From a virus (Duplodnaviria > Caudoviricetes): a DNA stretch of 64,000 nucleotides. A program made the position numbers and the translations under genes. The notes under the pieces are model-generated. The model did not search any database. It saw only the letters and a program-made list of their open reading frames with translations, and was not told the origin of the DNA. Numbering within the stretch: the stretch's first letter is position 1; the number at the start of each line of letters is the position of its first letter. Shown here piece after piece: positions 2,042-62,673 of the stretch. The stretch spans positions 1 through 64,000 of IMG/VR virus record IMGVR_UViG_3300020036_002473; one strand, written 5' to 3'.

Positions 2042-2095
2042 TATTTCTCCATTCCTTATTTCATTAATGTGTTACAATGTTACCGAGTGACAATG

Positions 2096-5000
2096 TTACC
2101 TAGTAACTGTATTAGCCGTGTCAACAACAGCATCCACTGTTTTCTTACCGGCATCGGCTACAGCAGCTGTTAGGCTGTCAATCTTAGCCATGAGGATGTT
2201 GTTTGTTGTCTGCTGAGCAGCCACCATTTCTCTTAGCGTTTGAATTGTAGCAGCTGTATCAACAGCATTCTGTGTAGCCATGTCAGCAATTGTCTTGTCT
2301 TTAGCACCCAAGTCATTCAATGTTGTAATACCATCAGCAATAACTTGTTGTGTATCAACAGCAGCAGGGCCACCTTTAGCTTCCCACCAAGCGTTTGCAG
2401 CTTCTTGTTGAGCTTGTGGAATTGTTTGACCTACACCTAATAACTCTCCAGCGCCCAACTTTTCAGCTAAGTCAGCAAATGTAGGGGCGATCTCTAGCAA
2501 GGCTGCATAAGCACGTCTACCAGATTCTGTTCCCAAGTTTTGCTGTTCAACAAGCTTACGGAAGTTAGCTAATGTAGCAGCTTCGTCAGCTCCAGCCATT
2601 ACATTCAAACCCATTGAAGCTAGCTTAGCCCCTACTTGATCAGCTGCAATCTTTTGCTTCTCAGCATCTGTGTAGTATTTGTCATAATATGCACCAAGGC
2701 TTGAAGCTAGTTTGTCAAGCCCTCCAGCAAACTCGATGAGCTGCATCTTAGCGTCTATGCTAGCAGCTCCAATGCTTCCGAACACGTCAGAGACATCAAT
2801 ACCTAGATTAAGGAATAACCCATCCACTGTAGCAATTGCTGAAGCAACACGCATCAGAGTTTCAAACGCACCTTCACCAACTTGCTTATACCTGTCAACC
2901 AAGTCAGTGAAAGCAAACTTAGACATATCATCACCAAGCTTAGAGAAGATGTTGGAAAATTGCTTTTGAATATCTTCAGCTGATAACCCTTTGAGGCTGA
3001 TATTTCCTAGGTCTACAACAAACTTATCTAGCTGTCCTGCAAAACCACTTCCCATTCCTAACACTTTACCTGCTTGTAGCACCCCATCACGCATGTTATT
3101 TACCACCATGCTAAACTGAGCACTAACTTCTTGAGGGAGGTCTGATAGGGTGGTGTAGTATTTGTTTTTCTTAAACAAGCCGCCAGATTTCTCGATGTTT
3201 GTATATCCTTGTGACATTAAGCCACCAGAAGCAATGCTTCCAAGTGATTGTTTGCCAGAAGTGATACCATAATCTGTAACAGATGTCTTGCCACCAAATA
3301 CTCCACCAATCAAATTGTTTAGCAGCTTCGTACCAAACCCCCCTGTAAGCTTCTCACCAATACTGATTATTCCTAAGCCATTCTTGCCAAGAATATTATC
3401 AACAGTTCTTTCGACTGAGCCAACTTTATTAGCTCCGCTCATGCTCAAATCGCCGACAATTCCACTCCGAATAATAATAGAAGTAAAGCCTGTCATTGAA
3501 GCTTCAATGTTCTTAAGAGAAGCCAACATTCCTGCATTTAGGTCAACAGACAAAGAAGAGTTTTCTTCTAATAGAGCAGTGGATTTAGAAATACTTTCGC
3601 TCTTAGCTGTTAAATCTCCGAACACAGTACCTGTCCCTGCCTGTTCTTGTAACTGCTCAGCAGATGTTGGAGCTTTTCCACCACCTCCACTAACGCTTAC
3701 GCCAAGGGCAATTACAGCAGCAGCCATAGCAGCCATAGCAGCAAAGCCAATAAATGGCCCAGCGGAGCCTTGTGTAATAATAGCACCAATAGCTCGGATG
3801 ATATTCAAACCCATTTGTGCAGTTTTCTCAGCCGCAATACCAGCTAAGGTGAGAGCATTCTTGGCTGCAATAGCCACCATCTCGTTATCACTGAGAGCAA
3901 GCTTTTGAGCAAAGCTCTTAGCAGCCATCATCATCTCATATATGCGGAAAGCCTTCTCAGCAGCGTTTAATACTTTGTAGCCAGCTGTCTTTTCTTTAAG
4001 TAACCTTTTGGATGCTCCTGCCATATCTGCGTAAGTTTTAGCACTTAATTTAGCTGTAGCTGTTAGGTAAGTTTGCTCTACCTTAGCAGCATCTTGACCA
4101 CCTTCGAGGGCTACCTTCTTATCTTGCTCAATCTTCTTTTGTTGCAGAGAATAGTCTTCAAACAATGTCATTAATGTTCCAAGAGATTTAGCAGCCTCTC
4201 CGAAACCATCAGACAACACTTGTCCTAAACTTCTACCAACACGCTCCATATCTAACATAGCTTGAGCACCTGCTTGCAGCTTCAAGGCTAAGCTTATTTT
4301 CTCTTGTGCTTCAGCTTCTGCTGTGAGCTTTCCAATGGTTTGCTCAATGGCTGTTTGCTTCTTAATCTCGCCAGCATAGAATTGCAATTGATTAACAGCA
4401 GCAGCTCTAGCTTGTTTGCTTTCAGCATCTGTGGCTGTCCCAATTTGCTCTATACGTGTCACTTGTGCATCATAATTACGCCTAGCTTCCAACAAGGTCA
4501 TTGAAGAGTTTTCGCGCAATATCTCTTGCTCACGTATTTTCAAGTCAATGGCTTCAGCAGCTGCTTGTTTCTCTCTGGCGTCCATAGCAATCTTTGTAGA
4601 GGCTGTAAGAATTGTTCCCTTACGCTCTGCTTCAATTGCTGCTGTCTTTTGATTAATATCATCTACAGCTTGACGTGTCTTATTGTTAATATCAATCAAC
4701 AAAGATTTATGTGTTGTCTCAGCTTGATTCAATCCGTCTTGAAATTCTTTAACAGATTGAAGAGCATTGCTGTAAGCACTCTTAGCCTCTGTGTCGGCGT
4801 TTGTTGCAGCTGCTTTTTTAGCTTGAGCTGCTGCTTGTGCTCTGGCTTCTTTAGCAGAGGCTGCTCTGTTCTTAGCTTCTTCAATCTTAAGGGGGTTTGA
4901 CTTTTCAAGGTCAGCAATCTGTTTCTTTGTTTGCTCAGCAGCTCTTGCATATGCGGGAGAGTCAGGGGACATCCCAATAACAGCTTTGCCTCTAGTTGCT

Positions 5001-6847
5001 AGAAGAGCTTCCTTCTTCTTATTCCACTGAAGCTGCTTGTCATTCTTGTCCAGCATTGCTTGACCAGCATCTCTATCACGCTTATCTCTGGCTTCATTCT
5101 CTTTCTCAATAGCTGTTATACTATCTTGAGAGGACATTTGATTTGCGGCCTTAACTAAGTTTTGAGAATGCACAAGATCTTTATTTAAGTTAATAAGCTC
5201 TTGTTTCATTCTAGCTTGATTTACTTCACTCTTAGCCGCTGGAGTATCGGCTGAAAGGTCACGCTTCTTAGCTTCAATTTGATCGTTTAGTGTGTTAATC
5301 TTTGCAGAAATTGTATCTCTGTCTGTTTGATTTTGCTCTTTATTAAATTCAATCAATCCAAGCTTAGCATTCTTAATACGCTTTGCAGCATCATCAGCAG
5401 CTTTTGCAGCACTATCACCCCAGTTAAACCAAGCAATAGCGCCTAATGTCAGTAAACCTGTTATTAAGATGATTGGATTAGTTAGTAAGGACAAACCTCT
5501 CGACAAAACAGTTTGCACTGCTGTCTGTGACTTCTGAGCATTGGCTAGTGCTAGATGTGCAGCTGCTTCCCGTTCTTTTGCTGCAATTATCTCAACACTA
5601 CTTACCAGTGTCGTGCGCAGGTACGCCAACTCATCTTTTGTTTTTTGTGCAGCTGCTGCGGCAGTGGTAATGGCTAGTTTTCTTTGCGTGTCAATAGCGA
5701 TCAAATCTGTGGCTGTCTTAATTGCTTGAGCGCCTACAGCTTTAGTAATTGTTGCTGTATAATAAATTAAAGCTCCTACAAGAACTGTGGATATTGCATT
5801 GGCTACAATCTTTGCATTGTCTGCTATCACCATAATGCCTTTGGCTAATCCAGATACAACACCACTCTTTTGTTCCATCTCACCAATGGCTCTTGTGAAG
5901 GATGTTTTCAAGTTAGTCATTGCAGCATCAAATGTGATTGGAAGCTTGCCCACTTGCGCTTCCCAAGCTGGCCCTACAGTTTTTAATGTATCTACAATCT
6001 TTGTAATATCTAATGTACCAGCCGCCCCCATTGCTTTCAATTCAGCACGAGTTTTGCCTAATTGTTTTTCCAAAGCTAAAAGGATGATTGGAGCACCTTC
6101 AGCTACGGCATTAAACTCAGCACCATTCAATCTACCAGCTTGCAAAGCTTGAGAGAATTGCAGCATAACAGAACTTGCTTCAGCGCCTGTTGCACCAGAA
6201 AGCTTCAATGCAGACGCTACAGATGTTGTAACAGTCATTGCATCTTTAGCTGAATAACTATATCTTTGCAGTGCTGGAAGAGCGCGAGTGTATAATTGAA
6301 CAATACCGTCTAATGGTGCTCTCAATCTCAATGCAGCATCTGCTAATTCATTCTGTGTTTTCTTAGCTACTTCAGCACTCTTTGTAAAAATCTCAAGACG
6401 TGCTTGCATCATCTTCCAGCTGTCAGCCATAGCAATAATGGATGAGGACATGCCTACAAGCCCACCCATAATAAGACCACCACCAAGCAATGTTCTAAGC
6501 TGCGCTATAGAACCTCCAATGGCTTGAAAGGCATTCTTAGACTCATCGGCTGATTTCTTGCTTTGTGTTCCTACGCCAGCAATTGCATTTGTCACCATTT
6601 TAATCTCTGCTACAGCTGCTGCTGTCCCTGAAGAGGCTGGTACAATGCTTGTTGTGTTTGCTACACGTTGTAAATTCTGTAATTCTTTGGTTACGGCTTG
6701 ATATGAGGAAGAAGAAGAAGTGGAGAATTTCTTCGTAGCCACTTCCGCCTTGTCAGCCGATGTAGAGAGTTTATCTAGCTTAGCTATACTGTCGTCAATA
6801 CCCGAGGTAGCCACTTTAATTGATAATGTACTAACGTCAACAGCCAT
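2096..6847 (-). CDS. Tape measure protein
   Basis: 1583 aa, Ala-rich and helical; tape-measure N-terminal motif 'SSVMLQFSQALQAGRLNGAEFNAVAEGAP'; follows the tail chaperones. Confidence 0.95.
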   Translation of the reverse strand: MAVDVSTLSIKVATSGIDDSIAKLDKLSTSADKAEVATKKFSTSSSSSYQAVTKELQNLQRVANTTSIVPASSGTAAAVAEIKMVTNAIAGVGTQSKKSADESKNAFQAIGGSIAQLRTLLGGGLIMGGLVGMSSSIIAMADSWKMMQARLEIFTKSAEVAKKTQNELADAALRLRAPLDGIVQLYTRALPALQRYSYSAKDAMTVTTSVASALKLSGATGAEASSVMLQFSQALQAGRLNGAEFNAVAEGAPIILLALEKQLGKTRAELKAMGAAGTLDITKIVDTLKTVGPAWEAQVGKLPITFDAAMTNLKTSFTRAIGEMEQKSGVVSGLAKGIMVIADNAKIVANAISTVLVGALIYYTATITKAVGAQAIKTATDLIAIDTQRKLAITTAAAAAQKTKDELAYLRTTLVSSVEIIAAKEREAAAHLALANAQKSQTAVQTVLSRGLSLLTNPIILITGLLTLGAIAWFNWGDSAAKAADDAAKRIKNAKLGLIEFNKEQNQTDRDTISAKINTLNDQIEAKKRDLSADTPAAKSEVNQARMKQELINLNKDLVHSQNLVKAANQMSSQDSITAIEKENEARDKRDRDAGQAMLDKNDKQLQWNKKKEALLATRGKAVIGMSPDSPAYARAAEQTKKQIADLEKSNPLKIEEAKNRAASAKEARAQAAAQAKKAAATNADTEAKSAYSNALQSVKEFQDGLNQAETTHKSLLIDINNKTRQAVDDINQKTAAIEAERKGTILTASTKIAMDAREKQAAAEAIDLKIREQEILRENSSMTLLEARRNYDAQVTRIEQIGTATDAESKQARAAAVNQLQFYAGEIKKQTAIEQTIGKLTAEAEAQEKISLALKLQAGAQAMLDMERVGRSLGQVLSDGFGEAAKSLGTLMTLFEDYSLQQKKIEQDKKVALEGGQDAAKVEQTYLTATAKLSAKTYADMAGASKRLLKEKTAGYKVLNAAEKAFRIYEMMMAAKSFAQKLALSDNEMVAIAAKNALTLAGIAAEKTAQMGLNIIRAIGAIITQGSAGPFIGFAAMAAMAAAVIALGVSVSGGGGKAPTSAEQLQEQAGTGTVFGDLTAKSESISKSTALLEENSSLSVDLNAGMLASLKNIEASMTGFTSIIIRSGIVGDLSMSGANKVGSVERTVDNILGKNGLGIISIGEKLTGGFGTKLLNNLIGGVFGGKTSVTDYGITSGKQSLGSIASGGLMSQGYTNIEKSGGLFKKNKYYTTLSDLPQEVSAQFSMVVNNMRDGVLQAGKVLGMGSGFAGQLDKFVVDLGNISLKGLSAEDIQKQFSNIFSKLGDDMSKFAFTDLVDRYKQVGEGAFETLMRVASAIATVDGLFLNLGIDVSDVFGSIGAASIDAKMQLIEFAGGLDKLASSLGAYYDKYYTDAEKQKIAADQVGAKLASMGLNVMAGADEAATLANFRKLVEQQNLGTESGRRAYAALLEIAPTFADLAEKLGAGELLGVGQTIPQAQQEAANAWWEAKGGPAAVDTQQVIADGITTLNDLGAKDKTIADMATQNAVDTAATIQTLREMVAAQQTTNNILMAKIDSLTAAVADAGKKTVDAVVDTANTVTR

Positions 6848-6858: not shown

Positions 6859-7302
6859 CTAATTTATTTCTTCATTTTCTATACCACTATAAGGGCTACG
6901 AGACATGCGTTTAAACAAATCTTTCAATCCAGCCTCTAAAGCGTCTTTCTGTTCCTGTGTATCAGCATCTGGAACAAACGGAGCATGAGCACCTTTATCA
7001 CCATTACTTTTACTATATTCTCCAGCATAAGCCTTGCTCATCTTATGTAATAGCTCTGCTTGAAAAGCTGAGAGAGGTATTCCTACAAGCTTGCTCCAGC
7101 ACCATATCTCTTGGAAGGGGACATGTGTAATTCCCATTCCGTTAGAGCTTGCTGGCCCCACTTCTGTTAAATATTTCACCATCATTGGTTCAAAGCCTTC
7201 AAGGGGAGGCATTTCTACCTCTCCCTCTTGTTTAGCTATAAGGCTTTCATACCTGCTCACTCTATCATCTCCTGTTGTAGGAGAGCTATTAAGCCAAGCC
7301 AT
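6859..7302 (-). CDS. Tail assembly chaperone, gpT-like (probably expressed as a -1 frameshift fusion)
   Basis: Lies between the chaperone and TMP; its frame is open upstream to the GGGGAAG site (7335-7341) at the end of the preceding ORF. Confidence 0.8.
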   Translation of the reverse strand: MAWLNSSPTTGDDRVSRYESLIAKQEGEVEMPPLEGFEPMMVKYLTEVGPASSNGMGITHVPFQEIWCWSKLVGIPLSAFQAELLHKMSKAYAGEYSKSNGDKGAHAPFVPDADTQEQKDALEAGLKDLFKRMSRSPYSGIENEEIN

Positions 7303-7331
7303 GTGCCTAGCGTAAAGAGTGAGCCTTTCTT

Positions 7332-12095: not shown

Positions 12096-12593
12096 TTATT
12101 TATTATAGAGTGCTTGAAGCATCTTAGCTTCTGGCGATAACCCGCTAGTGTCAGCAACAACACTAGCACCAACTTCTTTAAACGATTCTTCTTCTACAGA
12201 CAATGTAGTTTCCAAGGCTGCGCATACAGCATCGAAAGCAACATCTTCCAGAGAAGTGGTAGCAGCCAATGTAGCCTCTGCTTTAGCAGTGCCAATCAAG
12301 CTTTCTAGTTTAGCCTTACGTTTATCATTTTTTTCTTGCATAGCTTTTTCAGCCAATGCTTTGGAGAATTCTTCTGCTTGAGCCACTTGTGTCAGAGCTG
12401 CTTCTAGCTTGCTAGCCATTGCAGACATTTCAGATTCGTAGGAACCTAATTTTTCTAATACAGAGCTAAGCTCAGCGTCTTTAGTTTGAACAAGGAGATT
12501 AGCTGCTGCAAGAGCTTCTTGGACATTAGCCATCTCTGTTAAATCGGCAGATTCTTTAGAACCTCCAAAACCACGTTTTAATGCCTCAAGCAT
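12096..12593 (-). CDS. Scaffold-like protein
   Basis: 165 aa, Ala/Glu-rich coiled coil between the protease and decoration genes. Confidence 0.6.
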   Translation of the reverse strand: MLEALKRGFGGSKESADLTEMANVQEALAAANLLVQTKDAELSSVLEKLGSYESEMSAMASKLEAALTQVAQAEEFSKALAEKAMQEKNDKRKAKLESLIGTAKAEATLAATTSLEDVAFDAVCAALETTLSVEEESFKEVGASVVADTSGLSPEAKMLQALYNK

Positions 12594-13449
12594 CTAAATT
12601 TCCTCTTTTATGTTTCTTTGTGATATAATCAATAAATTCTGAGCGTGTCATAACTTTATTAACTAACCCTAACGCCAAAGCATCTTTTGCATTGAAAACT
12701 TTAGCTTGTGTTGATTTGATAACATCAATGCCTAAGCCTGTATATTTAGATACGTGCGAGCAGAAGTCCAAATAAAGGCTATCCACATTAGCTTGTAAAT
12801 CTTCAATAAAAGACTTCTTCCAGCTTCCATCTTCAGCAAATGGTACTTTATCTTCTCCAGCGTAAATAAATGTACGCTGATAACCTTCCATCTTCAGGGC
12901 TTCAGAGTTGTTAAAAATTGTGCATACGACTCCTATGCTGCCAATTTCAGATGATGGATTCGATACAATTTCATCGCATACACACGCTAAAGCGTATGCT
13001 GCTGAGCAACTTTGACCATCTACGTATCCAACTAGGTAGACACCCGCATCGTCACATTTCTTACGAAGTTCATCAGAAGATTCGAAACAGCCGTGGCATT
13101 CTCCACCACCACTATCAAGGTTGAGCACGATAGTTTTAGCACCTTCACTAATCATCTCATCAACATCTTCAAGCAAGTCTTGATACGACATTCCGACTTC
13201 GCCACACATAGAGTGTACTGGCCTGTATGTCAAAGCACCAAAGATGTCAATCACGCCAATTCCGTTCATAGGGTCGTATCTATCTTCATCAGATTCATCG
13301 CCAGAGTCACTGTCAAACTTCATCGCGTCAATCTTTAAGTATTCACCAAGATTTCGATTTTCTAAATAGTTAGCAATTGCTGAAAATGATTTTAATGACA
13401 GATAGTGAGGTTTACTGTAGAACTCTTGCGTAAGCCTTGAGACTGGCAT
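12586..13449 (-). CDS. Prohead protease, peptidase S49 family
   Basis: 'DSGGGE', 'CSAAYALAC', 'GSIGV' S49 motifs; likely start MPVSRL at 13449. Confidence 0.92.
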   Translation of the reverse strand: MPVSRLTQEFYSKPHYLSLKSFSAIANYLENRNLGEYLKIDAMKFDSDSGDESDEDRYDPMNGIGVIDIFGALTYRPVHSMCGEVGMSYQDLLEDVDEMISEGAKTIVLNLDSGGGECHGCFESSDELRKKCDDAGVYLVGYVDGQSCSAAYALACVCDEIVSNPSSEIGSIGVVCTIFNNSEALKMEGYQRTFIYAGEDKVPFAEDGSWKKSFIEDLQANVDSLYLDFCSHVSKYTGLGIDVIKSTQAKVFNAKDALALGLVNKVMTRSEFIDYITKKHKRGNLDA

Positions 13450-13456
13450 TTGTTTT

Positions 13457-14287
13457 TTATTCTTTTTCATTTTGTTCCTTGTAAACACGAAGCCACTCAA
13501 GGTATTCAGAGTCCTCAGAAGGATTCCAACCAGACCTTACCTTCAGAAACACACTTCTAATCGTCCCCCACTCAAGACCAAAAGTTTTTGCTACTTCTGC
13601 TTGCCTAGTAGTTGGATTATTTCTAAGCATTTCAAAGGCATCCACTGCAAGACTCCATATAGCCCTATTTGCTACTGTAGACCTCCAAGCCCTATTATTC
13701 CTAGCTTTGGCTGCGTCACTAATCTTCTTCTTAGTCTCTTCAGAAGCAACTCTTTCTCGTGCTCTTTTCGACATTGCAGCTCTTTGCTCATCACTTAGAT
13801 TATGCTTCTTACCTGTACGTTTCCTAGAAAACTCAAGCTTCTGCTCCTCTGTCCACAAAGATTTGCCCTTCTTTGCTTTGGATATTTTCTGCTTTGTCTC
13901 TTCAGAATGCTCTTTTCCATAGAAAGAATTACCCTCACCCTTTCTTGACTCAGAAAATTTCTTCCTAGTTTCCTCCGAAGCTTTAACACCAAGTGACCCC
14001 TTTTGGCCACCTACTAGTAAGTTCCACCCTATCTTTGGACTATTCCTCAGCTTATACTCAATATCTAAGCAATACTCTGTCGAGCCTTGAACTAGAGTGT
14101 CTACAACAATGCTATCTCCATACTTCCTGAGATTATTGTACAATGGGTAGTTATAGCATTTTTCCCTGTTCATATCTGAAAAGTGCGTCTTGAGTCTCTT
14201 TTTAACTGTATTGCTGGTAAAGCCAATGTAGCCTTCAGTGAACATATCTGTATGCTCGGGTAAATGTAGCCAATAAACGAATGCCAT
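13457..14287 (-). mobile_element. Free-standing GIY-YIG homing endonuclease with NUMOD3 repeats
   Basis: 'FVYWL...GYIGFT...RLKTH', conserved 'GWN', and three (H/A)SEET(K/R)xK repeats; inserted between portal and protease. Confidence 0.88.
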
Positions 14288-15866: not shown

Positions 15867-17360
15867 TTATGTAAGTTTCTTTGCTATAATGCTTTGTCTG
15901 GAGAGATTAGGCATTGTGAAAGAAGGGATTTGTAAACTCTGTGCGATTATGTTAAAAGCATCAGATGTAGCATCTACCATATCGTCATGACCTCTACTGT
16001 CGTAGCTGAAGTTTTCAAGCTCTTGGAAGAATTCCTCATTCCAGTCTCCTCGCACCACTCTCACACTTCCAGACTCTGCTAGTGCTGCAAAAGGTTGGAA
16101 GCGAGCTACTTTGCTGGCTCTATTTGTAATTGGTACAGTACGGGCTGCTACACCATTCTCAGCTAATGTCCTTAGAAAGAACACAGCTGAAGCTTTACCA
16201 CCCCCATTATCTTTTGGGATTGTGATTTGTACATCACTTCCATCTTTTTGCGCTGTGGATATAATTTCTTTAAGAACACCATCAGCCATCTTACGGAAGC
16301 GCACAACATCTTCAATGTAGTAAATACCGTATCTATCCCTAGACATCTTTACACCAGCTGTAAAGTCAGGGTCACGATAGGTTTCTGAAGGGACACTGTA
16401 AGCCAAGTCCCAACTTCGTATCTTACTAACAGCATCGTGTGGTGGCCTGTCAACAAGCTCGACATATCGCCTATCAAAGAATCCATCGCCTTCAGCCTTA
16501 GCTGTCCAGCTGCCGTGTAAAAACTTAAGTTGATTAACACGAGGCTGAGCTAAAAGATTAGCTAGGTAAGATGTGTTTCGTGGTGGAAGCAAGTATGGAT
16601 TATCGAACACACCTGTAGGAATAAACCTGAAGCTCTTTGGAAAGAACAATTTTGACGGGTGTATATTTTTAATCTCTGCTTCTGAGAGTCCTACAGCATA
16701 TATTAAGTCTCTAGGCTTTCCGTATTTCTCGTAACACTCTTCAGCGCTATCAGCCCATAACACTTTGCTGTCTTGTACTGTAAACCATCTAACTCTTTTC
16801 TCTGTACCTTCTACTGGCACACCATCCTCATTCAAACTGAAATCAACCCAACTTTTTAAGAAGCTGTTAATGTCGGGATTGCATGTTAAGATTAGTTGTG
16901 GCTTTATTTTCGAATGTGCTGAGCGTAGACGAGATAATAAGAATAACACTTGATGCTCTGTCCACTTATCAGCTGCTTCATCTACAAAAATTCTAACAAG
17001 CTGAGCACCTTGGAAACCACCTAAGTCTGTATCACTGTCAATTGCATTCAAAGCAATCTCAGCACCAGAGGGAAACACCCACGTTCTTGCTTGTGTCTTA
17101 TAAATTCCACCAAACTCGGGGTAGACACTCTTAGATTCACTAACAATACCACCCTGCCGTGTTAGCTCTGGTACACTTCTACGGAAGATGGCACATTTAA
17201 AGTGGGGGTCATGAATTGCATCTAAGTTCTTCATGATAATGGTTCTCGTTTTCCCTCCTCCGGCTGAGCCCCCTACACATATGACATCGGTATAATTGTC
17301 CTGCAATGCTAATTTTTGTTTTTCAGATACTGGGGCATAGACACTACGTTCTTCTGCCAT
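15867..17360 (-). CDS. terL: Terminase large subunit
   Basis: Walker A 'GGSAGGGKT', Walker B 'IFVDEA', nuclease motifs 'WDLA' and 'HDDMVDA'. Confidence 0.95.
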   Translation of the reverse strand: MAEERSVYAPVSEKQKLALQDNYTDVICVGGSAGGGKTRTIIMKNLDAIHDPHFKCAIFRRSVPELTRQGGIVSESKSVYPEFGGIYKTQARTWVFPSGAEIALNAIDSDTDLGGFQGAQLVRIFVDEAADKWTEHQVLFLLSRLRSAHSKIKPQLILTCNPDINSFLKSWVDFSLNEDGVPVEGTEKRVRWFTVQDSKVLWADSAEECYEKYGKPRDLIYAVGLSEAEIKNIHPSKLFFPKSFRFIPTGVFDNPYLLPPRNTSYLANLLAQPRVNQLKFLHGSWTAKAEGDGFFDRRYVELVDRPPHDAVSKIRSWDLAYSVPSETYRDPDFTAGVKMSRDRYGIYYIEDVVRFRKMADGVLKEIISTAQKDGSDVQITIPKDNGGGKASAVFFLRTLAENGVAARTVPITNRASKVARFQPFAALAESGSVRVVRGDWNEEFFQELENFSYDSRGHDDMVDATSDAFNIIAQSLQIPSFTMPNLSRQSIIAKKLT

Positions 17361-17742: not shown

Positions 17743-17743
17743 A

Positions 17744-17882: not shown

Positions 17883-18272
17883 TTATTTAATCTCTTGTAT
17901 TTCATTGAAATTAACAAGTGGCTTAATACGCCCATCATCTTCAATCTGCTTAATACCTTGCTGCTGTTGCGTATGCTTAATTTCTAGCAATGTTCTTTGT
18001 AACGCATCCTTATTAATCTCTGTAGCAATCTTAAGATTAAGGTCTACAATTGTTCTTGCAGCATCTAGGGCAATACGCTCGTCTTGGCTTCTTGACAAAG
18101 CGTTAAGCTTACGAATACTTGCCCGATTAGCTTTTGCTAAGTATTTTAATGTGTTGCTAAGCTCATGTTTGTCCCGTATAAAGCTAAGCTTACCTGCTGG
18201 AGTCATTGTTGCTGGAGACTTGTCATCCTCTTCATCAATGTCCTCATATTCTTCTTCAAATTGTTCTTGCAT
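17883..18272 (-). CDS. Probable terminase small subunit
   Basis: 129 aa helical protein, the first gene of the late operon upstream of terL; called by position only. Confidence 0.55.
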   Translation of the reverse strand: MQEQFEEEYEDIDEEDDKSPATMTPAGKLSFIRDKHELSNTLKYLAKANRASIRKLNALSRSQDERIALDAARTIVDLNLKIATEINKDALQRTLLEIKHTQQQQGIKQIEDDGRIKPLVNFNEIQEIK

Positions 18273-21126: not shown

Positions 21127-21464
21127 TGAGTAAAGTAAAAGATAAACATCTCTACCCCGTAGACAAACACGGAAACATGCTAGACGATGCTGGCTATCGT
21201 TGCTCACCTCCTGCTAGCTGGCTTCCAATGGAGAAGTTTAAAGCTTCCTTACGCTTTATCGAAGAAGAGCGTGGACGGAGTAGCTTTCGCTTGATCTGTA
21301 AGGATGTTGTGACAGGGAAGCGTTATAGCGTTATGGCTAATTCTTTGGGAGCATTTATTAAGCGTTGCCGTGAAGGTGTTGTTGAAGGGGAGTGGCAGGT
21401 TGTGCAGCGTGGAGCAAGCTTCGGCACAGTATTATTAGAAGAGGAGAGTGTGGATGGTGAATAA
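21123..21464 (+). CDS. Hypothetical protein
   Basis: 113 aa, coupled to phoH. Confidence 0.7.
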   Translation: MMSKVKDKHLYPVDKHGNMLDDAGYRCSPPASWLPMEKFKASLRFIEEERGRSSFRLICKDVVTGKRYSVMANSLGAFIKRCREGVVEGEWQVVQRGASFGTVLLEEESVDGE

Positions 21465-22182: not shown

Positions 22183-22221
22183 GCCATTGCCATAACGCCA
22201 TGTAGAAATACAAGCAAAAAC

Positions 22222-23990: not shown

Positions 23991-24416
23991 ATGAGAAATT
24001 CTTGGAGAACTTCCGTTGGGGGCGTAGCCACATACTCGGTAATTCGCCTATGGAACAAAGGAGATAAGACGGGGTCTTTGCTAGGAATGTTCCTAACGCT
24101 TCTTGGCCCGCAAGGGTGCTTCTTTCTTCTTTGCTTCCTGATTATTGCTGTTGTTAATTTCTGGATGTGGCTAATCGGAGCAGCCCTCCTCTTGTGGGCA
24201 AGCTTAGCTATTGCTATTAGTTTGTCTATGCCTAAGTATTTCTTCAATGCTGGCTGCTGGTGGACAACAGAAGGAGATAATACGCATGTTGTAGACACAG
24301 CATGGATGCAGGAGAAATTTACGAAAGAGCAGCGTGTAGATATGCAAAGGAAATTTTTGAAGGCGCTGGGGAAATACCGTAAGGATTACCCTCATATGTC
24401 GTTGGATGTTTTATAG
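23991..24416 (+). CDS. Predicted membrane protein
   Basis: Two long hydrophobic stretches; GAGGAG RBS. Confidence 0.7.
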   Translation: MRNSWRTSVGGVATYSVIRLWNKGDKTGSLLGMFLTLLGPQGCFFLLCFLIIAVVNFWMWLIGAALLLWASLAIAISLSMPKYFFNAGCWWTTEGDNTHVVDTAWMQEKFTKEQRVDMQRKFLKALGKYRKDYPHMSLDVL

Positions 24417-25828: not shown

Positions 25829-25935
25829 CGTCTATGGCTCAGAAGAGAATTATATTGATTAGGCTGTAACCAGCTAATTAATTGTAAACAATTGAGGAGA
25901 ACTAAATTAAGAAGGTTAATATACACCAAGCGAAG

Positions 25936-36813: not shown

Positions 36814-36863
36814 TTGTGTTCTCCTTAATATTTAAAATTTCTCTCCACAAGAGAGATGTGCTT

Positions 36864-49214: not shown

Positions 49215-50969
49215 GTGGCTTATGTAGAGAGCAAGCAGCCTTGTCCCCGTTGTGTACGTAATGGACGGGACAAGGCAGGGGATAATTTTCATTTCTATGG
49301 AGATGGACGTGGAGGCCACTGTTTCAGCTGTGGATATACGATGCTGTCAGATGCTGAAAAAGAAGCTCGTGGAATAGATAAATTTGAATGGGATGAAGAA
49401 CAGGAGAAAATTGTGAGCACGAAGGAGGTTATTACGCCAGAGGAATCTGAGCAAATTAAGAGCTACACAGGGACAAAGGGGCATGAAAGCCGTGGTATTA
49501 CGGATGAGACGTATAAGGCTTATGCTGTGCGTTTTGAATACAGCGAGGAAACTGGAGAGCCTACAAAGCACTATTATCCATACACTGAGAACTATAAAGC
49601 TGCCGGATATAAAATCCGCATTCTGCCCAAGGATTTTACAACAGTGGGGAAAATTGGGAAGCAGAGTGAGTTGTTTGGGCAATGGAAGTTTAAGAATAGT
49701 AATTCTAAGAATGTTGTGATTTGCTCTGGTGAAGTGGATTGTTTGTCAGCTTTTCAGATGCTTGAAAACTATCGTAAATCTCGTAATGGAGATTTTGAGC
49801 CTACTCCAGTGGTTAGCTCTGGAATTGGAGAGACAGGGAGCTACAAACAAATTCAGCTTCAGTATGAATGGCTTAATCGTTTTGATAAGATTATCATCTG
49901 CTACGACATGGACACAGCTGGAAAAGATGCTATTAAAACTCTAGTGAAAGTGCTACCTAAAGGTAAGATGTTTGTCATGGAGCTTCCAGCTAAAGACACA
50001 AACGAGATGCTTTCAAAGGGTAAGGAGAAGGCTTGGATTGACGCTTATTATAAGGCTAAACCTTATAGCCCTGACGGGATTGTTGGGAGCAGTGGATTGC
50101 TTGATAAAATTAAAGAAGCAGCATTAATTCCTAAAGTTCCCCTCCCAGCTTTCATGCACGAGGTAGAAAAACAGATGGCTGGGGGCATTCCTTTAGGTGT
50201 TATTGTGAATTTAGCTTCCTCTTCCGGCAGTGGAAAGAGTACGATTGTTGATGAATGCACATATTTCTGGGCTTTTAACAGCCCACACAAGCTTGGAGTA
50301 GTTACTTTAGAGAGCGATTGTGCACAATACGGAACAAAAATACTGTCTCGCCACATCTCTCAGAAGATTGACCTCATTGAGAACAATGAAGATAAGTTGA
50401 AGTTGTTAAACAGCGATTACATAGAGGAAAAATCTAACGAGCTATTCCTAAACCCTGATGGTAGTGACAGGTGGATGCTTATTGAAGAGCGCGATGGTGG
50501 GCTAGAGAGTATGAAGGCTTTAATTATGGAACTTATTATCTCTTGCGAGTGTAAGTTGATAATTTTAGACCCTGTGAGTGACCTTCTTGAATCGCTGGAC
50601 AATGAAACTCAAGCTGGCTTTTGTAAATGGATGAAGGGGATTGTGAAGTCTCATGGGATAACATTTATTAATGTAGCTCATGTGAGAAAGTCTGCCAGCA
50701 ACCAAAAGGCAAATTCGACAGGTGCAGTTATGCACGAAGAAGATATTTTTGGAAGTGGTAGCTTGATTAAATCTGCTGCATGTAACCTTCTATTCACCCG
50801 AAACAAAGAGGCAGAGGATGCAATTGAACGAAATACAATTTCTATGCTTATGTCTAAATGCCGATGGACTGGTAGAACAGGTATTGCAGGACAATATTAC
50901 TATGATAACGAGTCACACACTTTATTTGACAAAGCTGATTGGCTCAGAACACAAGGAAACAACTTCTAA
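49215..50969 (+). CDS. Primase-helicase, T7 gp4-like
   Basis: Zn finger CPRC...CFSC, TOPRIM 'SGEVDCLS...DMDTAG...KDTNE', helicase 'SGSGKS', 'IILDP', 'VAHVRK'. Confidence 0.95.
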   Translation: MAYVESKQPCPRCVRNGRDKAGDNFHFYGDGRGGHCFSCGYTMLSDAEKEARGIDKFEWDEEQEKIVSTKEVITPEESEQIKSYTGTKGHESRGITDETYKAYAVRFEYSEETGEPTKHYYPYTENYKAAGYKIRILPKDFTTVGKIGKQSELFGQWKFKNSNSKNVVICSGEVDCLSAFQMLENYRKSRNGDFEPTPVVSSGIGETGSYKQIQLQYEWLNRFDKIIICYDMDTAGKDAIKTLVKVLPKGKMFVMELPAKDTNEMLSKGKEKAWIDAYYKAKPYSPDGIVGSSGLLDKIKEAALIPKVPLPAFMHEVEKQMAGGIPLGVIVNLASSSGSGKSTIVDECTYFWAFNSPHKLGVVTLESDCAQYGTKILSRHISQKIDLIENNEDKLKLLNSDYIEEKSNELFLNPDGSDRWMLIEERDGGLESMKALIMELIISCECKLIILDPVSDLLESLDNETQAGFCKWMKGIVKSHGITFINVAHVRKSASNQKANSTGAVMHEEDIFGSGSLIKSAACNLLFTRNKEAEDAIERNTISMLMSKCRWTGRTGIAGQYYYDNESHTLFDKADWLRTQGNNF

Positions 50970-52998: not shown

Positions 52999-54924
52999 AT
53001 GGCAGTGTATGCAGCAGACATTGAGACAACAGGGCTATTGGATGATATGTACAAGCAAGAACATCCAAAGCTTCATAATATTTGTGGTATTAACATTGAG
53101 ACAGATGAGATTGTGTTGTTTGAAGGCTCTGATAAATCCAAGATTCAAGCTTGGCTTGATGAAGGGCATACATTCGTCACACACAATTGCTATACATATG
53201 ATATGCCAGCCTTAGAGTTTCTGGGGTTTGGTGTGTCTAATGTTAAGTGGATTGATAGCTTGGCTATTTCTTGGTATCTGGAACCAGAAAGAATGAAGCA
53301 TGGCCTTGCAGAGTATGGAGAAGATTTTGGTGTCAAGAAGCCTATTATTGAGAATTGGGAAAACCAAACACAAGAAGAATACAACCATCGTGTTATAGAG
53401 GATTGTAAGATTCAGAAGCTCTTATGGCAGAAGCAGACAAAGATGCTCAACACATTGTATGGTGATTCAGGGTATGAGCGTGTCCTTAATTATCTAATGT
53501 GGAAAATGCAATGCTTACGTATGCAGCAAGACAACAAATGGAAGCTTGATGTTGATGGTGCTAATAAGCTCAGAGTGTTGCTAGAAGCTGAGATTGAACG
53601 CAAGGTGGATGCTCTTAAAGAGGTTATGCCTAAAGTGCCTGAGTATGTTGTTCGTAAGCGTCCAGCAAAGCCCTTCAAGATGGATGGCTCTCTATCAGCA
53701 TCTGGAGAGAATTGGAAAGCTTTGACAGAAGAGCATAAACTCCCATTTGAGCACACAGGAGATATTAAGGTTGTTAAAGGTTGGAATATTGGTAATCCTT
53801 CTTCTCACGTACAGATGAAAGCATGGCTTGATGGGCTTGGATGGGAACCAGAGACATTTAAATTCATTCGTGAGGATGATGGCTCAACACGTAAGATTCC
53901 CCAGATCAATCTTAAAGGTGGTGAGATTTGCCAGTCCGTAAAAGATTTAATTCCTAAGTGTGCTGGAATTGAACACATTGCAGGGCTTGGAATTCTTAAC
54001 CATAGGCTTAGTGTTGTTAATGGGTGGCTTCGTGATAGCGTAGATGGCTGCATTACAGCACGAGCACAAGGCTTTACCAATACGCTGCGTATGCAGCACA
54101 AAGAATATTGCAACACACCTTCCACTCGTGTTCCTTATGGAAGTGAACTGCGAAGCCTTCTTGTAGCTAGAGAAGGACATACTCTTTGTGGTAGTGACTT
54201 AAGTGGCGTAGAGAACTATATTAAGAACCATTTCCAATGGCACATTGATAGAGAATATGTAAAGACACAATTATCTGATGGATATTGCCCACACTTAAGT
54301 ATTTGCGTATCAGCAGGGATGATGAGCGAAGAGGATGCTGAGTGGTATAAATGGTATAAGAAGCAAAGTGAGCACACACCAGAGTTTGATAAGAAGTTTG
54401 CTGCTCTTGACGCTATCCGTTCTGTAGGAAAATCCACCAACTACGCATGCCAATACGGATCGGGGGTCGAGACTTTGGCGAGAACAGCGAAGGTTAGTAA
54501 GAAAGCTGCAAAGATGTTACATGAGGGATACAACAAGCTTAACTGGTCCGTCCCTAAGATTGCTTCAATGATGGTGGTGAAGAGCACAGCATTTGGAAAT
54601 TGGCAGCTTAATCCTGTTAATAAGTTTTGGTATTCTTTGCGAACAGATAAAGATAGGTTTAGTACATTGGTGCAAGGTACAGCTGCATATGTATTTGATA
54701 TTTGGCTTTACCAATGCTACATCCTTGCTAAGAAGCGTAGAATGGAATATAAGATTCTTGCCCAATCCCATGATGACCAAGTCCTTGAATTTAAAGGAGA
54801 AATTCGTGACGACATTGAGAATCTTATACGAGATGCCTTAGTAAATGTTAATAAAACATTAAAACTTAATGTAGCTATCAAGTGTGATGTTATGTTTGGA
54901 AAGAATGGTAAGGAGATTCACTAA
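52999..54924 (+). CDS. polA: DNA polymerase, family A, with 3'-5' exonuclease
   Basis: Exo I 'DIET', Exo II 'HN..YD', motif A 'GSDLSGVE', motif B 'RSVGKSTNYACQYG', motif C 'SHDD'. Confidence 0.93.
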   Translation: MAVYAADIETTGLLDDMYKQEHPKLHNICGINIETDEIVLFEGSDKSKIQAWLDEGHTFVTHNCYTYDMPALEFLGFGVSNVKWIDSLAISWYLEPERMKHGLAEYGEDFGVKKPIIENWENQTQEEYNHRVIEDCKIQKLLWQKQTKMLNTLYGDSGYERVLNYLMWKMQCLRMQQDNKWKLDVDGANKLRVLLEAEIERKVDALKEVMPKVPEYVVRKRPAKPFKMDGSLSASGENWKALTEEHKLPFEHTGDIKVVKGWNIGNPSSHVQMKAWLDGLGWEPETFKFIREDDGSTRKIPQINLKGGEICQSVKDLIPKCAGIEHIAGLGILNHRLSVVNGWLRDSVDGCITARAQGFTNTLRMQHKEYCNTPSTRVPYGSELRSLLVAREGHTLCGSDLSGVENYIKNHFQWHIDREYVKTQLSDGYCPHLSICVSAGMMSEEDAEWYKWYKKQSEHTPEFDKKFAALDAIRSVGKSTNYACQYGSGVETLARTAKVSKKAAKMLHEGYNKLNWSVPKIASMMVVKSTAFGNWQLNPVNKFWYSLRTDKDRFSTLVQGTAAYVFDIWLYQCYILAKKRRMEYKILAQSHDDQVLEFKGEIRDDIENLIRDALVNVNKTLKLNVAIKCDVMFGKNGKEIH

Positions 54925-56817: not shown

Positions 56818-56840
56818 CGCTTACATTATAGAGGTAGTTT

Positions 56841-58478: not shown

Positions 58479-59111
58479 ATGGCAGAACAACAATATGGTG
58501 TTTTAGAAGGTACATTTGCTTTTATGAAATTGGCAGAGCCTTCAACAAAGTACCAATCAAAAGATTTAGAGTATGCTGTTGATGTTGTCGTTAGCAAGGC
58601 TACTGCTAAAGCATGGAATAAGCAATTCCCTAAGCAGAAAGCTAAGGAGTTTGAAGCCGCAGAGTTTGAGCAGAAATTCAAAATGCCGATTCCAGCAGAG
58701 CTAGAAGGTGAAGATGAAATTTACATCATTAAGCTGAAGAAGGCTGCTACAAAAGATGGTGTAGCATTTGATGATAAATTCCGCCCTAAGCTGTTGTTAG
58801 ATACATCTGAAGGCCGTATTGATATTACGCTAAGCCGCTTAGCTGCTAATGGCACGAAAGGCAAAGCGAGTTATCGCATTACATCTAATGACTTTGGAAC
58901 ATTCGCACAGCTAAATAACATCCTCGTAGCTGAAGAAGATTTCAAAGAGTATGTACGCTCTTCTGGAGTTGCTGGTGCAGAGTTTGGAGAAGCTAAGCCA
59001 ATTGCTAAAGTGGAACCTGAAAGCAAGGCTGCTACAGCCTCACGGCCTAAAGCTGCCGAGGCAAAGCCGAAGGCCCCTGAAGATGATGACGATAATCAAA
59101 GCCCTTTCTAA
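58479..59111 (+). CDS. Single-stranded DNA-binding protein (gp2.5-like)
   Basis: OB-type body, acidic tail ending 'EDDDDNQSPF'; position before the exonuclease. Confidence 0.75.
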   Translation: MAEQQYGVLEGTFAFMKLAEPSTKYQSKDLEYAVDVVVSKATAKAWNKQFPKQKAKEFEAAEFEQKFKMPIPAELEGEDEIYIIKLKKAATKDGVAFDDKFRPKLLLDTSEGRIDITLSRLAANGTKGKASYRITSNDFGTFAQLNNILVAEEDFKEYVRSSGVAGAEFGEAKPIAKVEPESKAATASRPKAAEAKPKAPEDDDDNQSPF

Positions 59112-59192: not shown

Positions 59193-60128
59193 ATGAAAAA
59201 ATATGATGTGCTTGTAGACTTCGATACGCCATTGATTGCTATGGCTGCTATGCAGCAGAAGAATTCTGTTATCGCCACATTCAACAAGAATAAGCGTCAA
59301 AAAGAATTTGACAATAAGACAGCTTTTAACAAGTGGCTTAAAGAGAATGACAAGTGGGATATTGAAGATTTTACAATTGAAACAAAGAGTGTAATTGTAG
59401 GAAGTTTGGACAAAGCCTTATCGTCTCTCGTCCAAAAGGCTAATTACATTAAAGCTAGTAAGCATATGGCAAGCTGTAAGTTTGTCGTAGGAGGGCCACA
59501 TGGAAACTTCCGCGACAGCGTAGCAACTATCCTTCCTTACAAGGGCCAGAGAGGTGAAAAGCCATTATTATCACGTAAGCTTAAGGAAGCCCTTCTCAAC
59601 TCATTTGACGTGGAAATACTCCAGCCAGATGGGGATTATGAGAGTGATGACCTCATTTCTATGTACTTGCATCAGGATGTTGATAACAAGGACAGTAAGC
59701 GAGCTATCATGTCTCCTGATAAGGACTTGAAGCAATGTCAAGGCTGGCACTTTGATAATGACAATCCGCACAATCCTCCTTTCTTTATTAACGAGTTTGA
59801 AGGCTTCTACAATCTCTGCTTTCAAGGAGTTACAGGGGATGCTACAGATAACATTCAAGGGCTAGGATTTCAGCACCCAGAAATTGTAAAGAAATATGGA
59901 TTGAGGAAGTCTAATGGGATTGGTCCTGCTAGTGCTAAGCTTATTCTACAAGGATGTAAAGAGCCTTGCCAGCTTGCAGAGAGGCTTGTAGGCATCTACA
60001 AGCTTACATTCCAAGAAACACACGGAGAAGGCTGGAAAGCTATTTTAAACGAAAACATGCGCTTGCTGAAGATGCTAGATTATAAAGGCCAAGTGTATGT
60101 GTTTACAGAGGAGTGGGGAATTGAATAA
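59193..60128 (+). CDS. 5'-3' exonuclease / RNase H-like (T7 gp6 family)
   Basis: 'VDFD', 'NFRD...YKGQR', 'ESDD', 'DKDLKQ', 'GDATDNIQG...GIG'. Confidence 0.88.
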   Translation: MKKYDVLVDFDTPLIAMAAMQQKNSVIATFNKNKRQKEFDNKTAFNKWLKENDKWDIEDFTIETKSVIVGSLDKALSSLVQKANYIKASKHMASCKFVVGGPHGNFRDSVATILPYKGQRGEKPLLSRKLKEALLNSFDVEILQPDGDYESDDLISMYLHQDVDNKDSKRAIMSPDKDLKQCQGWHFDNDNPHNPPFFINEFEGFYNLCFQGVTGDATDNIQGLGFQHPEIVKKYGLRKSNGIGPASAKLILQGCKEPCQLAERLVGIYKLTFQETHGEGWKAILNENMRLLKMLDYKGQVYVFTEEWGIE

Positions 60129-60309
60129 TACTACACTAAGACACCTCCCTTCAGATCACTACTTTCAGGAAATACTGGAACCAGAACATTTTGCTAGAGT
60201 GCTAGGCACAGGTATGTTGTTTGAGCTAGAGCCATATGCTCCAAGCTATTGGAAGGAGCATTTAAAGCTTAAAGCAGAATGGGAGAGACGAAAACAATGC
60301 GAAGCATGA
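60097..60309 (+). CDS. Small hypothetical protein
   Basis: Fills the gap between two nuclease genes; start uncertain. Confidence 0.5.
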   Translation: MCLQRSGELNNTTLRHLPSDHYFQEILEPEHFARVLGTGMLFELEPYAPSYWKEHLKLKAEWERRKQCEA

Positions 60310-60881
60310 TGGAAGGGATTCGTAGTATCCAACCATGGGAACAACTCCCACATGTATGGAAAACTGAGGCAAGCTTCTGGGCTTGGGTGAAGGGAGTGCT
60401 TCGGAGAGGCTGGTCTAAACATCCTGTTAAGATTGAGTTCATTAAGAAGAATAGAATTCGCATTCCCAACCCTAATCCAAGAGGCAAGGTAGCATCTGTA
60501 TGGGGTGGTAAGTGTATGCGCTGTGGGGAGCTATTTGTTGAGAAGGATATGGAAGTTGACCACCTCGGAGGAACTGCTAACCTCACAGAAGAAGGTCATC
60601 TCCAATCTTGCCTTAAGAAGCTGTTGCTTGTGTGCTTTGATGACCTTGAATGGCTATGCAAAAGCTGCCACAGCATCCGCTCTTATGCTCAGCGTTACGG
60701 AGGCACAGAACAAGAAGCTATTATAGCCAAGAAGGGAATTGCTTTTAGCAAGCTTACAGCAGCACAACAAAATAAAGCCTTGCAAGAGATTGTTGGAAGT
60801 GCTAACATGGACATTAGTAGAACAAAGACAGTAGCTAAGCGTAAGGAATATTATTTGGAAATGTTGAAAGGAGAATGTTGA
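60297..60881 (+). CDS. HNH-type endonuclease (possible resolvase/packaging nuclease)
   Basis: 'CMRC...EVDH...L.WLCKSCH..RS'; conserved position after the exonuclease. Confidence 0.75.
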   Translation: MRSMMEGIRSIQPWEQLPHVWKTEASFWAWVKGVLRRGWSKHPVKIEFIKKNRIRIPNPNPRGKVASVWGGKCMRCGELFVEKDMEVDHLGGTANLTEEGHLQSCLKKLLLVCFDDLEWLCKSCHSIRSYAQRYGGTEQEAIIAKKGIAFSKLTAAQQNKALQEIVGSANMDISRTKTVAKRKEYYLEMLKGEC

Positions 60882-61486: not shown

Positions 61487-61733
61487 TAATGTAGAAATTG
61501 ATGTTAGCAATTTAAACCTCTTAGCCCGCCTAACACTAGCTGTAGGCTATTGTGGAAGCTTAGAGGAAGGCAAGACAGCAATGCAAGAGATTATTTCCAA
61601 CATTGGAGAGCAATGCTTTAAGCAATTCTGCGCTGAGCTTGTCCTTGTAGACCAAGAGAAGCTTGGGAAGGAAATGTTTAGTATTATTTCGCAAGCTTTT
61701 AACGAGTATGCTGATATTAAGAAAGGGAATTAA
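61479..61733 (+). CDS. Hypothetical protein
   Basis: AAGGAG RBS. Confidence 0.7.
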   Translation: MPNNVEIDVSNLNLLARLTLAVGYCGSLEEGKTAMQEIISNIGEQCFKQFCAELVLVDQEKLGKEMFSIISQAFNEYADIKKGN

Positions 61734-62596
61734 TGAGCAACGCTACACAACAATGGCACGAACAAGCCTTAGAGCTATTACAAACAGGGCTAAGCTGGCG
61801 TAAGATTGCCAAGGAGCTTAACATTCCTAAAAGCACATGCTCTGACTGGCTTCGTAAACAAATTGCAACAGAGAAGAAACAAGAGCGTGTATTTCATAAG
61901 CCCTTTAAGAAAGAACGTACAAGCCAGAACAATGAATGTATCCTGTTCATCTCTGACTTACATGCTCCTTACAACCACAAGGATGCTGTAGGCTTTCTTG
62001 AAGGCTTACGGGATAAACATAAGCCAACACGTATTATATCTCTTGGGGATGAGCTTGACCATTCAGCCTTGTCCTACCACGAGAGCGACCCTAACCTAAT
62101 GTCTGCTGGAGATGAGCTAGAGGCTGCACGTAAGACAATCGCAGACCTTCACAAGCTATTCCCTAATATGGACATTATGGAAAGCAATCATGGAAGTATG
62201 GTGTTTCGTAAGGCTAAGACACACGGTATTCCACGACAATATATTAAGAGCTATCGTGAGGTGTTAGGTGTAGGAGAAGGCTGGAAGTGGCATTATGACC
62301 TGACAACAATACTTCCAGATGGAAGTGACTTGTATGTGCATCATGGGCGAGCTGCTGATGCTTTAAAGCTCTCTCAACAAATGGGGATGAGTGTTGTACA
62401 AGGGCATTATCACACAAAGTTTAAAGCAGATTATTGGAGCAATCCACGAGCCTTAATGTTTGCCCTGCAATGTGGCTGTTTGATTGACGATGAGAGCTTG
62501 GCTTATTCTTACAACAATGTTAATATTCAGCGCCCTATTATTGGAACAGCATTGATTGTTGATAGCAAGCCTGTGCTGGAACCCATGAAATTGTGA
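61733..62596 (+). CDS. Metallophosphoesterase with an N-terminal HTH
   Basis: 'ISDLH', 'LGDELD', 'SNH', 'HHG', 'GHYH'; N-terminal 'GLSWRKIAKELNIPKSTCSDWL'. Confidence 0.88.
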   Translation: MSNATQQWHEQALELLQTGLSWRKIAKELNIPKSTCSDWLRKQIATEKKQERVFHKPFKKERTSQNNECILFISDLHAPYNHKDAVGFLEGLRDKHKPTRIISLGDELDHSALSYHESDPNLMSAGDELEAARKTIADLHKLFPNMDIMESNHGSMVFRKAKTHGIPRQYIKSYREVLGVGEGWKWHYDLTTILPDGSDLYVHHGRAADALKLSQQMGMSVVQGHYHTKFKADYWSNPRALMFALQCGCLIDDESLAYSYNNVNIQRPIIGTALIVDSKPVLEPMKL

Positions 62597-62673
62597 AAAC
62601 AATTTTATAAGCCAATGAAGCTGTAGGCTGAATAAGCCAATGAAACTTTGAAGCAACATTAAAGGAGGAACAA

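Follow-up and report, generated by a model that had tools for sequence, protein, structure and literature searches.

Stacked copies of gene 3' ends in an uncultured tailed phage: probable scars of short out-of-register recombination between diverged alleles

The sequence analyzed here, referred to as the window, is a 64,000-nucleotide (nt) stretch of an uncultured tailed phage: bases 1-64000 of the IMG/VR virus record IMGVR_UViG_3300020036_002473, which is 79,363 bp long and has direct terminal repeats. Behind several unrelated genes of this phage, encoding a tape measure protein, a 422-amino-acid (aa) polymerase-like protein, a deoxynucleoside monophosphate (dNMP)-kinase-like protein and a 287-aa protein of a helix-turn-helix (HTH)/phosphoesterase family, the last codons are repeated shortly after the gene ends, forming stacks that consist of one working end and one or more relics. 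These stacks are probably scars left when diverged alleles of co-infecting relatives recombined out of register over a short stretch at gene 3' ends. The genomes provide direct evidence that the relics are the working ends of other strains, that the spacers between copies are unrelated, that no element intervenes, that the phenomenon is specific to 3' ends, and that the relics at present lack constraint. Because a relic and its downstream flank match the real gene end of a relative at three loci, the sequences support the view that each relic once served as the working C-terminus of another allele and is not a slippage copy of a single allele that has since decayed.

Genes were called crudely, as the longest open reading frames (ORFs) under a strand-block constraint, and the last ten codons of each, including the stop, were compared with the three-frame translation of the next 100 nt; the null paired each gene tail with the downstream DNA of other genes. 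Anchored runs of at least four (three residues plus the stop) were seen at 3 genes against 0.09 expected (Poisson P ~1e-4), free, unanchored runs of at least five were seen at 3 genes against 0.08 expected, and at a fourth gene, the dNMP-kinase-like one, five residues are repeated without a stop. An earlier reading of this DNA (the sequence-only reading) had named these four genes and had proposed this very comparison as a check, in which the matches exceed the null from other genes. A mirrored test at gene 5' ends gave no runs of at least four against 1.2 expected, and the signal is thus specific to 3' ends. The copies stand head to tail with fixed periods of 16, 25, 34 and 40 nt, only 4-25 nt separate one from the next, and no mobile element or encoded product lies between them. 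The repeat finder TRF detects the tape-measure array only, the remaining stacks being too diverged. All coordinates, collected in Table 1, were verified by reading the sequence. Two further matches were discarded, a free run of four residues (PHMS) behind the gene at 23991..24416, which is within chance, and CLA* in an antisense ORF (7091..7315), a chance match on the wrong strand.

An amino-acid search forces the differences it finds to be synonymous, and detection was therefore redone by nucleotide score alone, taking in the window genome, its close relatives and 80 family-level loci. Among the stop-spanning, short-offset repeats recovered in this way, 7 of 8 coding mismatches are synonymous, where random change would yield 0.12-0.26 per mismatch (P = 1.6e-5). 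The synonymous bias, which the sequence-only reading had noted, holds without amino-acid ascertainment. Extension by readthrough or frameshifting was rejected, as that reading had also argued from the spacings, since most of the offsets (16, 32, 34, 40 and 55 nt) are not multiples of three and the relics have acquired non-synonymous changes. We also rejected a diversity-generating retroelement: the repeats of 12-27 nt are too short, the differences, which are synonymous, comprise transitions and transversions at every base and are not confined to template adenines, and no reverse transcriptase was found among the window proteins scanned. RNA folds of four stack regions were no better than those of shuffled sequences (z -0.7 to -1.6). 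No motif common to all loci was found at the junctions, where homology amounts to only 0-5 nt.

Close relatives, designated by L numbers, were obtained by homologue searches and derive from other samples. At the 422-aa gene, the homologues in L004 and L005 have 99% protein identity and no stack, and relative to them the window carries a 34-nt insertion, both flanks of which are ~95% identical to the stack-free relatives. The relic and the entire downstream flank are collinear with the working end of L004, from which the relic differs at 3 of 27 nt, all synonymous, whereas between the working end of the window and the L004 end 7 of 27 nt differ; for one serine L004 has TCA and the window AGT, a change unreachable by single silent steps. 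Because the relic and its flank match the L004 end better than the window's own working end does, the relic represents the resident end, and the working end came from elsewhere. The foreign end has the AGT-type serine codon family also present in L003, L100 and L101, and the sequences of L003 and L004 part directly after the stop of this gene.

The same stack is present in L100 and L101, and the junction stop-CGTCT-ATG is identical in the window (25829-25869), L101:2803-3035 and L100:2842-2890; the three relics that share it differ from one another almost only at silent sites of the old frame. In L101 the ATG of the junction starts a 75-codon hydrophobic ORF, absent from the gene calls and likely to be a two-helix membrane protein. 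The window retains an 11-codon stump of this ORF (25834-25869), with a downstream spacer that resembles its degraded 3' end, and L100 retains a 13-codon stump made of its first and last codons. The L100 relic lies 45 nt further from the stop, just ahead of the ribosome-binding site of the next gene, and the working end and relic there are separated by three 15-nt tandem units (L100:2797-2841), two of them identical and each with a stop at its end, the last of which equals the 3' part of the post-relic spacer in the window and L004. The shared junction may go back to one old event that spread by recombination into differing working-end backgrounds, or else to a site-preferred break. A search of IMG/VR for the CGTCT-relic pattern returned 0 matches. 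The 422-aa protein itself has polymerase-like motifs (..DFRSLHP.., ..PVHDSFVV..), no Pfam match and a sole match to phrog_4756, of unknown function. Its last ~55 residues are near-identical in homologues that are only 42-45% identical overall, and the gene is therefore itself an internal mosaic.

The 287-aa gene belongs to a family of more than 1,600 members, one subgroup of which ends in ..PMKL. Its homologue in L008 has 97% protein identity and ~99% DNA identity over the 80 nt upstream of the stack, but the 25-nt units stand in the order B-A-C in the window (three units) and A-B-C-A in L008 (four units), so that working and relic roles are reciprocal: unit B is the working end in the window and a relic, with its spacer, in L008, where a near-identical unit A is the working end. 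All 7 units of the two genomes code for PMKL*, and the only combinations of the variable bases that would be non-synonymous, TTT and TGG, are never present. The relic units have a common ATAAG lead that the working gene does not have. L006 and L009 have single ends at this gene, and L006 and the window part after the PMKL stop. A DNA pattern for ..PVLEPMKL* gave 0 matches in IMG/VR, and a pattern of two PMKL units gave 5 matches in JGI metagenomes, all in unrelated coding sequence and thus chance. At 62585-62609, the spacer of unit B contains an inverted copy of the gene end, ATGAAATTGT..ACAATTTTAT, followed by TTTTAT.

Three 16-nt units (93% matches by TRF) make up the stack at the tape measure gene. 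L012 and L013 have a single end there, GTA ACA CGA/CGT TAA TGAAAT, the counterpart of unit 3 in the window, and lack the 32 extra bases; L011, an independent assembly, has the same three-unit stack. Units 1 and 2 have the same four bases after the stop (CATT) and differ at 2 of 16 positions overall, while unit 3 is set apart from them by 3 synonymous changes in 12 coding bases and by changes at all 4 post-stop bases. When the orthologous stacks of L011 and the window are compared, a single synonymous change separates the working ends and two non-synonymous ones are present in the relics, V>I (unit 2 of L011 reads ATC) and R>H (unit 3 of the window, L011 retaining an intact CGT); because these relic differences are non-synonymous, coding constraint no longer acts on the tape-measure relics. 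The flanks are 91-97% identical across four genomes, and the event was therefore local. The 16-nt register continues upstream, and slippage may be the source of units 1 and 2, since the first five bases of a unit also spell the Arg-stop of the unit before it. Taken alone, this locus does not decide between allele exchange and slippage.

At the dNMP-kinase-like gene a 40-nt insertion is flanked by an 11-nt repeat, and the two 40-nt units are unrelated past their first 15 nt. Reading on in the frame of the relic WREIL would overlap the start of the next gene, and the homologue in L010 ends in WKEILEL*, overlapping its own next gene. Here, too, at 36846-36886, the spacer has an inverted copy of the gene end, GGAGAGA..TCTCTCT, abutting the start of the next copy. 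Together with the inverted copy at the PMKL locus this hints at hairpin-assisted misalignment, with folds that are not significant. The clpP gene, proposed by the sequence-only reading as a further, weak case, could not be established: deletion of a 13-nt insertion restores the ..DAT* end of L003, L004 and L005, but the repeated AM* comprises only 3 codons, which is at chance level (1.7 expected per genome), and a local GC[CG]AT micro-repeat makes the alignment ambiguous. Downstream of clpP, a 397-aa gene (22352-23545) is missing in L003, L004 and L005, where the base corresponding to 22349 joins that corresponding to 23544, a clean gene-sized insertion. A further stack was observed just past the window (~64230-64290), where GAA TAC TGA TAAA at the end of the gene 63704..64249 recurs 24 nt downstream as GAA TTC TGA TAAA; the sole difference, Y/F, is non-synonymous.

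Stacks were also found in other relatives. In L003, the gene matching window 17883..18272 is followed by an insertion of 38 nt that the window lacks, with two IQEIK* ends that have three synonymous differences and wholly unrelated spacers, each closing with the same TTGACA box; because the spacers are entirely unrelated, this stack did not arise by slippage of one sequence. L072 has an identical 12-nt copy. Family-level relatives (80 loci, 1.43 Mb, 2,279 genes) gave 6 anchored matches against 1.4 expected, which reduce to ~3 independent real cases: CQYFV* with two synonymous differences, LAK* with one, and ISI*, which is identical. Stacks thus occur at ~3% of genes in the window genome and at ~0.15% in family-level relatives, a difference of ~20x (Fisher P ~1e-4).

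Table 1. Gene ends, relics and other genes of the window. Asterisks in peptide sequences denote stop codons.
Feature	Position	Strand	Details
Tape-measure unit 1, working end	2096..2107 (2107-2096)	-	GTT ACT AGG TAA (VTR*)
Tape-measure relic unit 2	2080..2091	-	GTC ACT CGG TAA; two synonymous differences from unit 1
Tape-measure relic unit 3	2064..2075	-	GTA ACA CAT TAA; native end, R>H decay in the window
422-aa polymerase-like gene	24560..25828	+	working end ..SSEENYID*
34-nt insertion relative to L004/L005	25800..25833	+	present end ..AGT AGT GAA GAA AAT TAC ATT GAC TAG, then linker CGTCT
Relic of 422-aa gene end	25836..25862	+	GGC TCA GAA GAG AAT TAT ATT GAT TAG (GSEENYID*)
dNMP-kinase-like gene	36864..37634	-	ends WREILSF*
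Working WREIL codons	36873..36887	-	TGG AGA GAA ATC CTT
Relic WREIL	36833..36847	-	TGG AGA GAA ATT TTA; 40 nt downstream; copy without stop
287-aa gene	61733..62596	+	ends PMKL*
PMKL unit B, working end	62582..62596	+	CCC ATG AAA TTG TGA
PMKL relic unit A	62612..62626	+	CCA ATG AAG CTG TAG, then GCTGAATAAG
PMKL relic unit C	62637..62651	+	CCA ATG AAA CTT TGA, then ribosome-binding site of the next gene (62674..)
clpP gene	21448..22182	+	
clpP end region	22174..22205	+	13-nt insertion relative to L003/L004/L005; second AM* at 22197-22205
Structural block: tape measure	2096..6847	-	
Structural block: S49 protease	12586..13500	-	
Structural block: terminase	15867..17360	-	
Replication module: primase-helicase	49215..50969		T7-like module
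Replication module: family A polymerase	52999..54924		T7-like module
Replication module: DNA and RNA ligases			T7-like module
Replication module: Gp2.5-like single-strand annealing protein	58479..59111		
Replication module: exonuclease	59193..60128		
Replication module: HNH endonuclease	60279..60881		

In the recombination that we propose, one parent would supply the gene through its stop codon plus a few bases, and a join at little or no homology would fall a few codons ahead of the stop in the allele of the other parent. The stretch of 16-40 nt from one breakpoint to the other would thus be doubled, one copy from each parent, with the first copy finishing the protein and the second staying untranslated. 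The coding parts would differ silently and the spacers would be unrelated because both copies were alleles under purifying selection. Selection would also set the position, a short duplication that is not in frame being harmless only if it spans the stop codon or is wholly intergenic, so that only such events would survive. The insertion would then spread through the population as an ordinary indel by homologous recombination, and unequal exchange or slippage among the units would later alter their number and order, while the relics decay; examples are the shuffled PMKL arrays, the 15-nt units of L100 and the tape-measure units of 16 nt. Short, diverged overlaps may persist because they are unable to anneal in register, and longer or more similar overlaps would resolve without duplication. 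The molecular route would be template switching, or the joining of broken, resected molecules by a T7-like, Gp2.5-type annealing protein, an exonuclease and a ligase; the phage encodes all three of these candidates, the ligase being a DNA ligase, and also has an HNH endonuclease.

Much of this agrees with the sequence-only reading, which had taken the copies for once-functional C-termini of different alleles and had suggested a search of relatives for the relic codons as real C-termini; these were found in L004, L008, L012 and L013. The order that it proposed, with the newer end proximal to the gene and the displaced resident end distal, is the one observed. Its serial allele replacement needs amendment: displaced allele ends do pile up, but a whole incoming gene is not needed, and the event looks like a local insertion of 32-40 nt, because stack-free relatives resemble the window to about the same degree (~91-97%) on either side of the stack at the tape-measure and 422-aa genes.

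Several points weigh against out-of-register recombination. The resident parent type was identified at three loci, but a donor genome with the incoming end plus its native downstream sequence was not found among the relatives, and the join was never seen in a parent. The junction homology of 0-5 nt and the lack of a common motif do not single out an enzymatic route, and the CGTCT junction common to three genomes is not predicted by simple random joining. Slippage or unequal sister exchange would serve equally well for the PMKL array, for the 15-nt units of L100 and for units 1 and 2 of the tape measure, and the ~20-fold excess of stacks in the window lineage does not follow from the model. It is conceivable, but in our judgment doubtful, that gene ends are instead replaced recurrently in a break-initiated, element-free process, a homing-like conversion without a homing gene, in which relics are returned to service by exchange and so stay coding-competent. 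If true, this would account for the identical CGTCT junction in three genomes with only synonymously different relics, the rapid reshuffling of PMKL units between ~99% identical genomes and the 20-fold enrichment.

Replication slippage or unequal sister exchange within one genome, which would yield identical tandem copies that are later point-mutated, is an unlikely origin of the stacks as a whole, and as their sole cause it is already refuted. Head-to-tail copies with fixed periods are what it would leave, and the near-identity of tape-measure units 1 and 2 with the same post-stop bases, the identical copy in L072, the two identical 15-nt units in L100 and the ATAAG lead confined to the PMKL relic units all fit it. 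It does not fit the unrelated spacers in L003 and at the dNMP kinase gene, relics that are closer to another strain's working end than to the end of their own gene, the synonymous character of 7 of 8 mismatches, or copies that differ by 30-45% where the flanks differ by ~5% from stack-free relatives. About as unlikely is that each stack is what remains of a mobile element that arrived with a copy of the target 3' end and later lost its body, or that a site-specific nuclease starts the replacement. The order of ends is that of hybrids formed by mobile endonuclease ORFs (mORFs) in fungal mitochondria, in which the foreign end comes first and the displaced native end follows (PMC3630166); the window, L100 and L101 have an identical stop-CGTCT-ATG junction, an HNH endonuclease is present in the phage group and terminase inteins in its relatives, and small ORFs vary at the junctions (the 75-aa membrane ORF of L101, which starts inside the relic, and an extra 52-aa ORF in L006). 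Against this, working end and relic are separated by only 4-25 nt, relatives differ by clean insertions of 32-40 nt with no traces of an element, no junction motif is common across loci, and the L101 ORF follows the relic instead of separating the copies.

It is very improbable that the units serve a function, for example as protein-binding iterons, terminators, structured RNA or translated mini-ORFs, with a likeness to coding ends that is incidental or selected. Every PMKL unit does contain ATG-AAR-YTN-stop, the unit B spacer is an inverted gene-end copy followed by TTTTAT, and a TTGACA box is present in each L003 unit, but the sequence differs at every locus, the RNA folds are not better than shuffles, relics take non-synonymous hits, and close relatives without the copies are otherwise unchanged. 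Least probable of all is an assembly artefact in which strain variants were placed in tandem: the window is indeed a metagenomic viral contig from a sample that clearly contains diverged strains, but the same stacks, with small differences, appear in independent assemblies from other samples (L011, L008, L100, L101), and the junctions have no overlap of k-mer length able to mislead an assembler.

The sequence-only reading knew of no named mechanism for such a footprint. Precedents do exist, in mORFs, in prophage e14 at icd and in genes 67/68 of mycobacteriophage Island3, but all have an element or gene between the copies and the stacks have none. The mORFs of fungal mitochondria insert a foreign C-terminus, in atp6 of Allomyces and in atp6, atp9, cox2 and nad3 of Glomus (PMC3630166). 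As in the stacks, a foreign end joins the gene in frame while the native end comes to lie downstream, untranslated, and the native copy agrees with close relatives, whereas the inserted one is much more diverged in DNA but almost identical in protein (PMC3630166). The mORF copies are kept apart by a LAGLIDADG endonuclease ORF of several hundred bases, which drives the event (PMC3630166), where stack copies have only 4-25 nt between them; mORF pieces are tens of codons long, whereas the stacks duplicate 4-13 codons in up to 3-4 copies in a row. Prophage e14 at icd in E. coli (which leaves the icd' pseudogene) and insertions at attachment sites in tRNA 3' ends similarly supply a replacement 3' end, preserve an intact gene and keep the old end as a duplicate, but they are integrase-mediated and site-specific and have a whole prophage between the copies (PMC6379469), while the stacks have neither an integrase site nor an element. 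At Island3 genes 67/68 the last codons are repeated downstream at a mosaic junction, with a 60-bp 3' end in common, and the authors take the repeat as a trace of recombination near a gene boundary (PMC3029335). A whole 85-codon gene, which the second copy ends, separates the Island3 copies (PMC3029335), whereas stack copies are adjacent and non-coding.

Illegitimate and relaxed (homeologous) recombination resemble the stacks in producing low-homology joins at or near gene boundaries with function kept (PMC3945230, PMC2327257; Hendrix model in PMC3029335). About 70% of surveyed phage mosaics are without flanking homology, with their origin left open (PMC3945230). In keeping with the Hendrix model, the relatives studied here lose similarity abruptly at or near the gene boundary, with 0-5 nt of homology at the joint and intact genes. 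Studies of mosaicism infer joins from discontinuities between genomes, while the stacks keep the overlap, with both parental ends readable in one genome. We found no description of adjacent, element-free gene-end stacks in phages in the open-access literature, and regard them as a variant of mosaic-junction and end-displacement phenomena rather than a new system.

The window genome has no close cultured relative, terminase identity to cultured phages reaching 41% at most. When two window segments were compared by Megablast with 50,697 phage records, no relatives were found, and single-protein scans of IMG/VR with the 422-aa and 287-aa proteins gave zero matches. The terminase is 497 aa in the window (15867-17360) and from 722 to at least 808 aa in relatives (L003:685-2853; L012:1-1809), and the longer terminases match Hom_end, an intein endonuclease; on the basis of this length and match, the relatives' terminase is assigned an intein absent from the window genome. 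Of four tRNA genes (17666-17819, 56744-56818 and 57310-57383), those for Pro(tgg) and Thr(tgt) lie on the minus strand, those for Arg(tct) and Met(cat) on the plus strand. A gene-poor middle region contains a perfect 12-nt tandem repeat, GATACCTAACAG, in 5.5 copies (31278-31343), and a (TA)13 tract (38925-38950).

It has long been debated whether phage mosaic joints at gene boundaries reflect homologous exchange at short conserved linkers or random illegitimate joining filtered by selection, and most mosaic joints retain no trace of the event. The stacks keep both parental gene ends, and breakpoints, joint homology, direction and decay can be directly read and counted in them. For annotation, relics are a source of false mini-ORFs, and in L101 a relic forms the start of a real small gene. 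The footprint is easily searched for, by translating the 100 nt after each stop and comparing the result with the C-terminus of the gene, and across whole genomes it could mark recent out-of-register exchange and the diversity of co-infecting strains. Read in this way, the stacks are direct examples of mosaic joints without flanking homology.

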